DNA of 64,000 nt from NCBI RefSeq assembly GCF_044324875.1, contig NZ_CP172185.1; one strand, written 5' to 3'. The first letter of the stretch is position 1; every line of letters starts with the position of its first letter. The stretch comes from Escherichia coli (GTDB lineage: Bacteria; Pseudomonadota; Gammaproteobacteria; Enterobacterales; Enterobacteriaceae). Made by a program: the position numbers and the translations under genes. This document shows positions 8,859-47,955 of the stretch, one piece after another. A model generated the notes under the pieces. That model did no database searches, was not told where the DNA came from, and was given only the letters and a program-made list of their open reading frames with translations.

Positions 8859-10181
8859 TTACAACGATTGATGTCGCGTCTCATGGGTCAGCAGCAGGGC
8901 GATTAACGTCAAGCCAGCCATCGCCGCCAGATATAACCCCACCGCACCTAACCCGTAGTTAGTCTGCAACCAGGCTGCGATATACGGCGCAACGGAAGCC
9001 CCGAGAATCGACGCTACGTTGTAAGAGAACGATGCTCCGGTGTAACGCACTTCTGTCGGGAACAGCTCTGGTAACAGCGCGCCCATCGGCCCGAAGGTCA
9101 GTCCCATCAGACTTAATCCCAGCAGCAGGAAGGCAAAAACCAGAATCGGGTTGCCAGAACCGAGTAGCGGGTTAAAGGCGAACAGCGCGAACAGGATGAT
9201 CAGCGTGGTGATGATTACCATGCTTTTACGGCGACCAAAGGCATCAGCCAGTAATCCGGCGACTGGTACCATCACGCCAAAACCAATCACTGCCATCATC
9301 AGCATCCACAACACTTCGTTACGCGGCAGGCCAAGCCCAACTGGCGCGGCGGCGGTACTAAAGGTCATAGAGTAGACCGTCATGATGTAAAACAGCGTAT
9401 AGGTTGCCAGCATGATGAAGGTACCGAGCACCGTGACGCGTACGTGTTTGGTCAGCAGCGTACCCAGCGGGATCTTCACCTGCTTTTTCGCTTTAGCGAC
9501 TTTCTCAAACACCGGCGACTCATGCAGCGACACGCGAACATACAGGCCGATAATGACCAGCACCGCCGAGAAGATAAACGGCACACGCCAGCCCCAGCTC
9601 ATAAACTGCTCGTCGGTCAGTAGCCAGGAAAGCAGCAAGAAAGTGCCGTTGGCAAAGAAGAAGCCAATCGGTGCGCCCAGCTGCGGGAAGGAGCCATACA
9701 GTGCACGTTTGCGCGGTGGGGCGTTTTCAGTCGCCAGCAGCGCCGCGCCGCCCCATTCACCGCCTAAGCCCAGACCCTGACCAAATCGAGCCAGCGCCAG
9801 CAGCAGCGGGGCGAAAATACCAATCGTGGCATAGCCCGGCAGCAGACCAATCACCACGGTCGAAATCCCCATCGTTAGCAACGAGGCGACCAGCGTCGCT
9901 TTACGCCCAACGCGATCGCCAAAATGACCAAAAACGGCAGAGCCAATGGGGCGCGCGACGAAGGCGATGGCGAAGGTGGCGAGCGACTGGAGCGTTGCTG
10001 CCGTAGGATCGCCCTGCGGGAAGAAGATATGCGGAAACACAATAACGGCCGCAGTGGCGTAAATGTAAAAGTCGAAGAACTCAATGGCCGTGCCAATGAG
10101 AGAGGCGACAAGGACTTTATTACGCGAGTTGATCGGCGTGTATTCTTGCTCGTGGTCGAGTGTTGTGGCTGTTGCTTGCAT
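8859..10181 (-). CDS. yhjE: MFS metabolite:H+ symporter family transporter YhjE
   Basis: 440-aa ORF, 12-TM major facilitator architecture; recognised as YhjE. Confidence 0.92.
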   Translation of the reverse strand: MQATATTLDHEQEYTPINSRNKVLVASLIGTAIEFFDFYIYATAAVIVFPHIFFPQGDPTAATLQSLATFAIAFVARPIGSAVFGHFGDRVGRKATLVASLLTMGISTVVIGLLPGYATIGIFAPLLLALARFGQGLGLGGEWGGAALLATENAPPRKRALYGSFPQLGAPIGFFFANGTFLLLSWLLTDEQFMSWGWRVPFIFSAVLVIIGLYVRVSLHESPVFEKVAKAKKQVKIPLGTLLTKHVRVTVLGTFIMLATYTLFYIMTVYSMTFSTAAAPVGLGLPRNEVLWMLMMAVIGFGVMVPVAGLLADAFGRRKSMVIITTLIILFALFAFNPLLGSGNPILVFAFLLLGLSLMGLTFGPMGALLPELFPTEVRYTGASFSYNVASILGASVAPYIAAWLQTNYGLGAVGLYLAAMAGLTLIALLLTHETRHQSL

Positions 10182-45960: not shown

Positions 45961-46108
45961 CAATACTATTAGCCAGTGGCTAACATTGCAAGAATTAGCG
46001 ATTTCTTCAGCTGGCGGAGGGAGCACTTCGGTATACATGGCAGTGAAAGAGGATTTATATACTTTCACCGGATTATCGCCGTACTAAGCCTTGTCCGAAT
46101 CCGGATGT

Positions 46109-46195
46109 AAAAAAACCGACTTCGCGTCGGTTTTTTTACTGTTCAGCCCTGAGTTGGTGGCTCTGGCTGGAGTGAGAATGCCATCATCTAACTTT
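46109..46195 (-). ncRNA. agrA: AgrA-like sRNA (dinQ antitoxin repeat); 5' end approximate
   Basis: second near-identical repeat unit with the same terminator hairpin and the ctctggctggagtgaga block; dinQ-proximal copy. Confidence 0.55.
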
Positions 46196-46252
46196 TCCAT
46201 GCTATTACCTTAAAAGAGACATTGCAAGGTTATGCTGGTTATTTAGCCTAAT

Positions 46253-46274
46253 TACACTGTATGATTATCCAGTT
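46253..46274. promoter_or_regulatory. LexA (SOS) box upstream of dinQ
   Basis: tacactgtatgattatccagtt contains CTGT-N8-CCAG, one mismatch from the CTGT-N8-ACAG core; about 190 bp upstream of the dinQ ORF. Confidence 0.55.
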
Positions 46275-46465
46275 AGCTCTGAGGCATTTTCACTCTGGCA
46301 ATGCGCATAAACGCTTTCAAAGTCCTGATCAGTGGTACGGGTGGTGCCGTTAACTGATGCTCTGGCCGGAGTGAGAGAGTTCTTATCTAACAATGAGACA
46401 TGCGCCGTGACAGGCAGTGGATGAGTAAGCGGATGCATTCTCACTCCATCGCATGGAGAAAACGG

Positions 46466-46549
46466 GTGATTGATAAAGCAATCATCGTTCTTGGGGCGTT
46501 AATTGCGCTACTGGAACTGATCCGCTTCCTGCTTCAGCTTCTGAACTGA
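46466..46549 (+). CDS. dinQ: DinQ, SOS-induced type I toxin (single-TM peptide)
   Basis: 27-codon ORF from GTG encoding (M)IDKAIIVLGALIALLELIRFLLQLLN, matching the DinQ peptide; preceded by the LexA box and the agr-complementary leader. Confidence 0.75.
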   Translation: MIDKAIIVLGALIALLELIRFLLQLLN

Positions 46550-46566
46550 TAGCGGAAACGTAGCTA

Positions 46567-46600
46567 AGGGCAAAGAGCACACCACTCTTTGCCCTTTAAC
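46567..46600. terminator. Bidirectional intrinsic terminator between dinQ and gor
   Basis: hairpin agggcaaagag...ctctttgccct flanked by T/A-rich tracts in the convergent gap. Confidence 0.6.
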
Positions 46601-46602
46601 AT

Positions 46603-47955
46603 TTAACGCATGGTCACGAACTCTTCTGCCGCCGTCGGGTGAATGGCGACGGTATTGTCGAAGTCTTTTTTGGTCGCCCCCATCTTCAGCGCCACCGCGA
46701 AGCCCTGCAACATTTCATCCATACCAAAACCAATGCCGTGAATACCGACAATCTTCTCTTCTGGCCCAACGCACACCAGCTTCATGCGGCACGGCTGGCG
46801 GTGAGTGGTGACGGCGGTATACATCGCGGTGAAAGAGGATTTATACACTTTCACCTGATCGTCGCCGTACTGCTCGCGCGCCTGCGGTTCCGTTAAACCA
46901 ACAGTCCCAATCGGCGGATGGCTGAAGACCACGGTCGGAATATTGCTGTAATCCAGATGCTCATCCGGCTTGTTATTAAACAGGCGTTCAGAGAGACGGC
47001 GACCCGCTGCAACTGCTACCGGTGTCAGTTCCACTGCACCCGTGTTATCGCCCACCGCGTAAATACCTTCAACGTTGGTATTTTGATATTTATCGACGAC
47101 GATATAGCCTTTTTCGTTAGTTTTAACGCCAGCGGCTTCCAGGTTGATGTTGTCATTGGCAGGCTCGCGACCAATCGCCCAAATCAGGCAATCCACCGTT
47201 TTACTGCGACCATCTTCCAGCTCCAGCGTCAGGCTACCATCGGCATTTTTCACTACCGCTTTCGGGATGGCGTTGGTGTGCAGCTGCGGGCCTTCGGCGT
47301 TCATCACTTCGACCAGCGTTTCAGAGATCATCGGGTCGAAGCTGCGCAGCGGCGCATGTTTACGCACAAACAGATGCGTTTTCGCGCCGAGGCCGTTAAT
47401 CACGCCCGCCAGTTCAACGGCGATGTAACCCGCGCCAACAACCGCTACGCGCTCTGGCAGCGCCGGAAGGGCGAAGAAGCCATCAGAATCAATACCGTAT
47501 TCCACGCCCGGAATATCCGGGTGGCTCGGACGACCGCCGGTGGCGATCAGGATATGATCGGCCGTGATGGTTTCGCCGTTTACCTCCAGCGTTTTGGCAT
47601 CAACGAAGCGGGCAAAGCCTTTGATTACATCAACGTTATTTTTACCGAGCACGTTTTCATAGGAAGTATGAATACGGTCGATATAGGCGGTACGGCTGGC
47701 GATCAACGTTTCCCAGTTGAACTTATTGATGGTGGTATCGAAACCATAATCCGGGCCGTACATATGGATCGCTTCACGGATTTGCGCCGCGTGCCACATC
47801 ACTTTTTTCGGCACGCAGCCGACGTTCACGCAGGTGCCACCCAGTTCTTTGGCTTCAATCAGTGCGCATTTCTGACCGTACATAGCCGCGCGGTTAATGG
47901 AGGCGATACCGCCGCTGCCGCCGCCGATGGCGATGTAATCATAGTGTTTAGTCAT
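46603..47955 (-). CDS. gor: Glutathione reductase (NADPH)
   Basis: 450-aa ORF; FAD-binding GGGSGG and redox-active disulfide motif [13 protein letters not shown]. Confidence 0.96.

Follow-up and report, generated by a model that had tools for sequence, protein, structure and literature searches.

The interval between the small RNA genes agrB and agrA contains a decayed copy of an internal segment of gor, and this relic is probably a non-functional pseudogene fragment, the scar of a tandem duplication that was followed by a deletion. In the window, the 64,000-nucleotide stretch of Escherichia coli DNA analyzed here, local alignment pairs positions 46010–46085 with 46794–46871 on the same strand, with 66 of 79 columns identical (83.5%, or 88% when the four gap columns are left out). 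The alignment score of 88 compares with 22.0 ± 2.4 (maximum 33) for shuffled sequences and with 28 for the opposite strand. An independent repeat search returns an ungapped core of 57 nt (46029–46085 versus 46815–46871; 89% identity, spacing 786), and this core has no match above noise elsewhere in the 64-kb window (score 25). The initial annotation had paired 46011–46087 with 46794–46870 at about 85% identity and a distance of 783 bp, which is right to within 1–3 bases, and had correctly placed the fragment between agrB and agrA, as seen from the matches to Rfam family RF02891 that flank it at 45872–45955(−) and 46107–46191(−).

The window carries the arsRBC / dinQ–agrAB / gor / rlmJ region of E. 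coli in reversed orientation relative to K-12. The features on which the following argument draws are listed below, with S and S′ denoting the two copies of the proposed duplication.

43587–45721, minus strand: arsC, arsB and arsR
45858–45992: agr unit of copy S′, comprising tail, terminator, AgrB and promoter to the −35 TTGCAAG; 84–89% identical to 46093–46228
45872–45955, minus strand: AgrB sRNA, the arsR-proximal copy (Rfam RF02891, 108.1 bits)
45986–45991: AgrB −35 hexamer TTGCAA, read directly from the sequence
45993–46009: filler of 17 nt between the AgrB −35 and the relic, site of the proposed internal deletion scar
46010–46085, minus strand: gor′ relic, decayed copy of gor codons 363–388
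46086–46092: junction AAGCCTT, 7 nt, between the gor′ start (S′) and the AgrA-unit tail (S), the proposed duplication joint
46093–46228: agr unit of copy S, comprising tail, terminator, AgrA and promoter to the −35 TTGCAAG (repeat search and collinear alignment)
46107–46191, minus strand: AgrA-type sRNA, the dinQ-proximal copy (Rfam RF02891, the AgrB model, 91.9 bits)
46359–46392, plus strand: repeat of the dinQ 5′ UTR that is complementary to agr and serves as target of the antitoxin (repeat search; PMC3567139)
46466–46549, plus strand: dinQ toxin ORF, 27 aa, GTG start; the presumed single surviving toxin gene of the duplicated unit
46603–47955, minus strand: gor (glutathione-disulfide reductase), 450 aa, intact
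46794–46871, minus strand: parent segment within functional gor (Q362/Y363 to P388)

The arsR-proximal sRNA copy is taken as AgrB and the dinQ-proximal copy as AgrA because of their complementarity to the repeat in the dinQ 5′ UTR: in the window the 23-nt core of AgrB has one mismatch to this target, versus six for AgrA. The AgrA-type tail reads TTGTCCGAATC. The relic starts 21 nt downstream of the AgrA terminator and stops 17 nt upstream of the AgrB −35. It had been asked whether the fragment falls within the AgrA or AgrB transcripts; it lies outside both Rfam-defined sRNAs, between the AgrA terminator and the AgrB promoter. It reads in the gor sense on the agr strand (−), and its coding integrity is lost, in that it spans only codons 363–388 of 450, is directly preceded by a TAG, degenerates through indels after codon 380 at its low-coordinate end, which is the 3′ part in the gor frame, and bears a 4-bp deletion in K-12. 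The parent segment is near-invariant among the gor genes of E. coli, E. whittamii, and E. albertii that were examined.

The arrangement of the repeats around the relic points to its origin. The segment 45858–45992 pairs with 46093–46228 and the relic pairs with its parent segment in gor in the same order, such that S′ is collinear with S. A gap-tolerant alignment of 45858–46085 with 46093–46871 accordingly shows the agr unit followed collinearly by the gor piece, and between these two blocks there are 17 nt of unmatched filler in S′ versus about 565 nt in S (the dinQ promoter, dinQ, and the last 190 nt of gor). S′ ends at 46085 and S begins at 46093, so that the two copies abut across a 7-nt joint. 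Because S′ is collinear with S and abuts it, one duplication and one deletion explain the AgrA/AgrB pair, the relic, its orientation, and the 783–786-bp offset. In E. albertii, a single agr gene is followed by a relic with a different pattern of deletion, which comprises 19 nt corresponding to gor 46853–46871, 17 nt of other sequence, and the final 30 nt of gor with its stop codon (score 40 versus 20 ± 2 for shuffled sequences). Since this relic retains the gor stop codon, the piece that was duplicated originally spanned gor from codon 363 through its end. Collinearity, abutment, and the E. albertii relic together support the suggestion of the initial annotation that duplication captured part of the gor 3′ region. 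Homology, orientation, and the collinearity and abutment of the blocks are direct readings of these alignments, as are the former reach of the relic to the gor stop codon in E. albertii and the decay and dispensability described below.

We infer the following order of events, which includes a former second dinQ. An ancestor shared by E. coli, E. albertii, and the cryptic Escherichia clades would have carried gor directly followed by a single dinQ/agr type I toxin-antitoxin cassette. A tandem duplication of about 0.78 kb would then have copied S, which consists of the last 269 nt of gor, dinQ, agr, and a short tail (46871 down to ~46086). The first copy would have kept the 5′ part of gor, leaving gor intact and followed by dinQ and AgrA, and the second copy, S′, would have opened with a promoterless, 5′-truncated gor′. 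In the E. coli lineage, an internal deletion of about 0.56 kb would have taken what else there was of gor′ together with the second dinQ and its promoter, after which 76 nt of gor′ would be joined via the 17-nt filler to the second agr gene, the present AgrB. The filler itself (45993–46009) was considered as leftover cassette sequence and rejected as such, with 365 of 500 shuffles scoring the same or better against S.

All relic alleles share derived states relative to gor (ATATAC for ATACAC, CCG for CAG, and GTA for GTG), which points to descent from one event. Beyond E. coli, a single scan of species-representative genomes with an agr-core pattern, which did not return E. fergusonii, located the AgrA–relic(–AgrB) layout in E. 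whittamii and in two divergent “E. coli” representatives. The event is thus old, as the relic-plus-AgrB layout is common to all three and to E. coli itself.

The distribution of the relic within E. coli was examined with a 96-nt query over the relic, counted at ≥80% length cover in 5426 complete genomes. The query matches at 9269 places in 5422 genomes; the relic is present in about 3841 of the 5426 (~71%), and the rest match gor only. A dispersed repeat of the REP, BIME, or ERIC type was rejected, as the window holds two copies only, one of them within gor, and the E. coli genomes hold one relic place in addition to gor. In single-agr strains, exactly 236 bp are gone between equivalent points of both agr units, the relic included, and the route of relic loss is unequal crossover between agrA and agrB. 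At least three deep alleles of the relic exist in E. coli, represented by the window, by K-12 and 042 (a 4-bp deletion and many transitions), and by O157 and GPEC strains, in which the gor-derived frame stays open and PGAP annotates a 71-aa hypothetical protein that runs through AgrA. Between the window and K-12, the relic differs at 13 of 83 positions, whereas the gor 3′ end does so at 11 of 348 and the AgrB unit at 1 of 153; among strains more widely, the relic differs by 16–22% and the gor 3′ ends by 2–3%. The relic thus behaves as neutral DNA that is dispensable and decays fast.

The window allele of the relic is the least derived relative to gor. None of the 5,426 complete RefSeq E. coli genomes has it (best match 87.5% over the 96-nt query), although two draft assemblies carry it unchanged. 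For the gor gene of the window, the identity reached among complete RefSeq E. coli genomes is at most 98.1%.

The hypothetical protein of the O157/GPEC allele class, WP_000968019.1 (positions 1048–1263(−) of the GPEC1165 locus examined, and in others), starts in AgrA, crosses its terminator, and reads on in the gor-derived frame. In all likelihood this is no real gene but a false call made on the relic, and a practical use of recognizing the relic is to flag this annotation.

Several observations are not readily accommodated by duplication followed by deletion. No genome examined keeps an intermediate with a second dinQ, and a search for one across E. coli returned none (5423 dinQ places in 5422 genomes). 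E. albertii has the relic without AgrB, the second cassette there being only presumed lost. Divergence is uneven: the ancestral core of the relic is about 9% from gor, and the low-coordinate 20 nt and the AgrA/AgrB promoter spacers are far more diverged. In the inferred ancestral core, four of five differences from gor are synonymous and two relic states are those of Citrobacter or Salmonella gor, which could hint, on too few sites for significance, that the relic stems from a once-functional, different gor allele. Finally, the endpoint at 46086–46092 is only a few bases away from where the cassette naturally ends, to judge by Escherichia sp. E1V33 and Serratia, a coincidence that an insertion model would predict and a random duplication endpoint would not.

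Such an insertion forms the principal alternative, in which the cassette arrived together with a replacement gor 3′ end, the relic is the displaced original 3′ end, and AgrB arose separately and later. The cassette could have entered by homology-facilitated illegitimate recombination or by Campbell-type integration of an excised circle carrying the gor 3′ end and the cassette. The cassette is indeed discrete and mobile. Homologues of roughly 46105–46601 occur on 2227 matching plasmid records, mostly conjugative, and in unrelated contexts in Serratia and Hafnia, and there is no cassette beside gor in Citrobacter and Salmonella. Escherichia albertii presents exactly the order expected of this process, gor–cassette–gor′ to the stop codon with a single agr, and the start of the relic close to the natural left end of the cassette and the mostly synonymous core differences, two of them outgroup gor states, point the same way.

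Against this, extra events are needed to place AgrB after the relic in the same order and orientation, and the collinearity of S′ with S would be a coincidence. A foreign origin of the present gor 3′ end was rejected, since codons 363–450 are no more diverged at third positions than codons 1–362 (third-position differences from Citrobacter and Salmonella of 0.31–0.36 in the 3′ part versus 0.38–0.41 in the 5′ part). No recombinase or integrase lies between the two gor copies, where there are only dinQ, AgrA, and short ORFs, and no att-like identical core is present. The other cassettes lack a flank duplication: around those of Serratia and Hafnia no duplication of flanking genes was found, and a flanking duplication thus appears, from these comparisons, specific to the gor locus. 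Apart from three full-length matches, of which the one listed is a chromosome-sized E. coli record, neither gor sequence nor the relic was found in the 2227 plasmid records.

The DNA past the E. albertii relic bears on the same question. It was considered as the native flank or terminator of gor and rejected, because it is a later, phage-plasmid-like insert of higBA DNA whose match begins 6 nt inside the relic end; it shows no similarity to the gor flanks of Citrobacter and Salmonella or to dinQ. Taken together, displacement of the original 3′ end by an inserted cassette is a possible but unlikely explanation of the relic, and it is rather doubtful that the Escherichia chromosome gained, or regained, a dinQ/agr cassette of plasmid type through homology-assisted capture with gor as the anchor, 269 bp of which would have been duplicated. 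Were capture true, type I toxin-antitoxin cassettes could colonize the 3′ ends of housekeeping genes without inactivating them.

Escherichia sp. E1V33 has gor–dinQ–agr without a relic, with cassette homology starting at 46091. This relic-less state is probably a secondary loss or replacement, since its gor distance puts E1V33 among the cryptic clades, inside the E. albertii split.

It is very improbable that the relic has a function, be it in RNA form (as a hairpin, or as an antisense or decoy transcript directed at gor mRNA), as an element upstream of the agrB promoter, or through an encoded small protein. The initial annotation had proposed that the fragment could let gor mRNA and agr-region transcripts base-pair, and this is not supported. 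The known transcripts AgrA and AgrB run on the gor-sense strand according to Rfam and PMC3567139, and read-through from AgrA cannot pair with gor mRNA because AgrA and AgrB share the gor strand and the relic in such a transcript would itself be gor-sense. A consensus scan, which also missed the known agr promoters and terminators, found no plus-strand promoter across the relic. The only plus-strand signal over the relic is an Rfam match at 46049–46139 (35.8 bits, below the gathering score of 40), and it is accounted for by the palindromic terminator. At the gathering score the relic has no match to RF02891 and is therefore not itself an AgrA/AgrB sRNA. In favor of a function, a 9-bp hairpin, GGTGAAAG...CTTTCACC, is present and all alleles seen share a 16-nt block, GATTTATATACTTTCA, without change; however, the hairpin is inherited from gor and destroyed by the 4-bp deletion of K-12, and the fold z-scores of −1.3 to +0.5 are unremarkable, with no significant or conserved fold. 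The 71-aa ORF that PGAP places over AgrA and the relic in some genomes would favor a small protein, but it crosses the AgrA terminator and is confined to one allele class, and the window allele has a TAG. About 29% of complete genomes do without the relic altogether, and its alleles are 16–22% apart with an indel, the K-12 allele being 16% diverged from that of the window.

Ongoing gene conversion between gor and the relic, as a means of maintaining their similarity, is equally hard to credit. It would be consistent with the window allele being nearer to gor than the K-12 or O157 alleles, with the presence in K-12 of A for G at one same position in both gor and relic, and with the far better conservation of the core than of the low-coordinate end. 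Strain 042, however, combines a K-12-type relic with a G-type gor, such that there is no co-variation, and the private changes of the window allele (CATG and GGATTATC) are not towards gor; the allele is simply the least derived. Relic and gor share no exact match longer than about 17–20 nt, a short stretch for conversion that depends on RecA.

Chance similarity or an assembly artefact, for which only the shortness of the match speaks, can be dismissed: the score lies about 27 standard deviations above the shuffles and the identity is thus beyond the random expectation against which the initial annotation had set it, homologous relics occur in ~3841 E. coli genomes and three other Escherichia species, and the artefact envisaged there is contradicted by two independent NCBI assemblies that carry the same allele base for base (1239 of 1239 positions over the whole region).

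Duplication followed by deletion, the reading we prefer, extends what is known of this locus. Weel-Sneve et al. (2013; PMC3567139) state that agrA and agrB “presumably ... have been tandemly duplicated” and describe agrA as partly degenerated. The retrieved passages of that paper and of Kristiansen et al. (2016) contain no mention of a gor-derived fragment, of the size of the duplicated unit, or of duplication and loss of dinQ, and wider literature searches found no description of the gor fragment. The locus is the same as that of the arsR–gor duplication in PMC3567139, to which the relic adds the size of the unit and, by implication, the duplication and loss of dinQ. The relic fixes how large the AgrA/AgrB duplication was and what it contained, namely about 0.78 kb that took in the end of gor and, it would follow, dinQ as well, which suggests that E. 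coli once carried two dinQ toxin genes. It further suggests that AgrB, the working antitoxin, was orphaned by the deletion in its copy, and that AgrA, beside the surviving toxin, is the one that is degenerate in K-12. The locus would thereby exemplify a type I system in which a toxin gene was lost and its antitoxin kept, and the relic would provide a marker for tracing rearrangements of a hypervariable locus across Escherichia. As a finding it is a small new detail of a known locus, an ordinary duplication scar that involves no new mechanism.

Comparison with other systems places the locus more precisely. In E. coli K-12, the e14 prophage generates the icd/icdC pair by site-specific integration; an integrase is present, the element supplies a new 3′ end, and the displaced fragment is complete. 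The gor locus resembles icd/icdC in having a short, diverged copy of the 3′ end of a housekeeping gene beyond an inserted element and in the same orientation as the intact gene, but it differs in lacking an integrase, in the internal deletion of the fragment, and in the partial second copy of the element (AgrB) that follows. The LDR repeats of ldr/rdl and the ibs/sib genes of E. coli are type I toxin-antitoxin cassettes that multiply by local tandem duplication and decay unevenly, with whole cassettes retained. At dinQ/agr, on the preferred reading, the second toxin is gone, only a copy of the antitoxin RNA is left, and a piece of the neighboring housekeeping gene was co-duplicated. The plasmid dqlB/agrB cassettes described in PMC12317039 and PMC5066626 are homologous and bounded by the same two terminators, and the plasmid matches stop short of the relic and gor. 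Experiments on dqlB/agrB of IncX3 plasmids have shown that it acts as a toxin-antitoxin system and as a plasmid-stability module (PMC12317039).

The antisense elements of the locus vary among strains as well. The 23-nt agr cores (45932–45954 and 46168–46190) and the dinQ 5′ UTR target (46367–46389) co-vary in the manner of specificity alleles. The copy that matches dinQ is AgrB in the window, K-12, and 042 (0–1 mismatch, against 5–6 for AgrA); in GPEC1165, AgrB is an exact match to a different dinQ allele, and in O157 strain NE92 the AgrA copy is closer to the dinQ target, with two versus four mismatches. To judge from these alignments, the working antitoxin copy may differ between lineages.

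The AgrA promoter/dinQ promoter segment 46190–46262, just upstream of the conserved LexA box, is hypervariable: of its 73 nt, 24 differ between K-12 and the window, and 22–24 when the comparison is with O157 and 042, against 1–3% in the flanks. This pattern suggests deep or imported alleles of the promoter region.

In strain DA61218, a larger repeat-mediated deletion fuses an agr copy to the agr-like repeat of the dinQ 5′ UTR. All agr promoters and the dinQ/LexA promoter are lost and arsR–arsB are gone too; the dinQ ORF is kept and looks promoterless, and the toxin-antitoxin system is probably dead in this lineage. DA61218 belongs to a class of matches with 62% coverage, which also holds a strain named ST-131. 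Strain 042 has arsD and arsA beside arsR, an arsRDAB-type operon rather than the arsRBC type of K-12, with the same dinQ/agr/relic arrangement.

On a larger scale, the interval 40119–46090, from the slp upstream region to the tail of the dinQ/agr cassette, varies in content from lineage to lineage. Escherichia coli has yhiS–arsCBR–AgrB–relic there, E. albertii has higBA-like DNA, and E1V33 has 450 bp of unique sequence. The interval resembles a hot spot of insertion or replacement whose borders are fixed at about 40118 and about 46091. The E. albertii DNA begins right after the relic stop codon, extends over about 1.7 kb with a higB/higA-like pair, and sits where E. coli has the ars/yhiS/AgrB stretch, upstream of slp. 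Its identity is 77–94% to E. coli plasmids of ~90 kb whose annotation includes phage tail proteins and which are perhaps P1-like phage-plasmids.

A contig from a metagenome bin, CAJMPC010000160.1, was considered as a transfer of the gor 3′ end with the cassette and rejected, being most likely an assembly chimera (1.7x coverage). Its agr–dinQ–gor 3′ portion resembles K-12, by eye rather than by count, where K-12 and the window differ, and its gor is only ~70% identical to that of E. coli from about 46855 onward; the two parts were probably joined at a highly conserved stretch of gor near the relic boundary.
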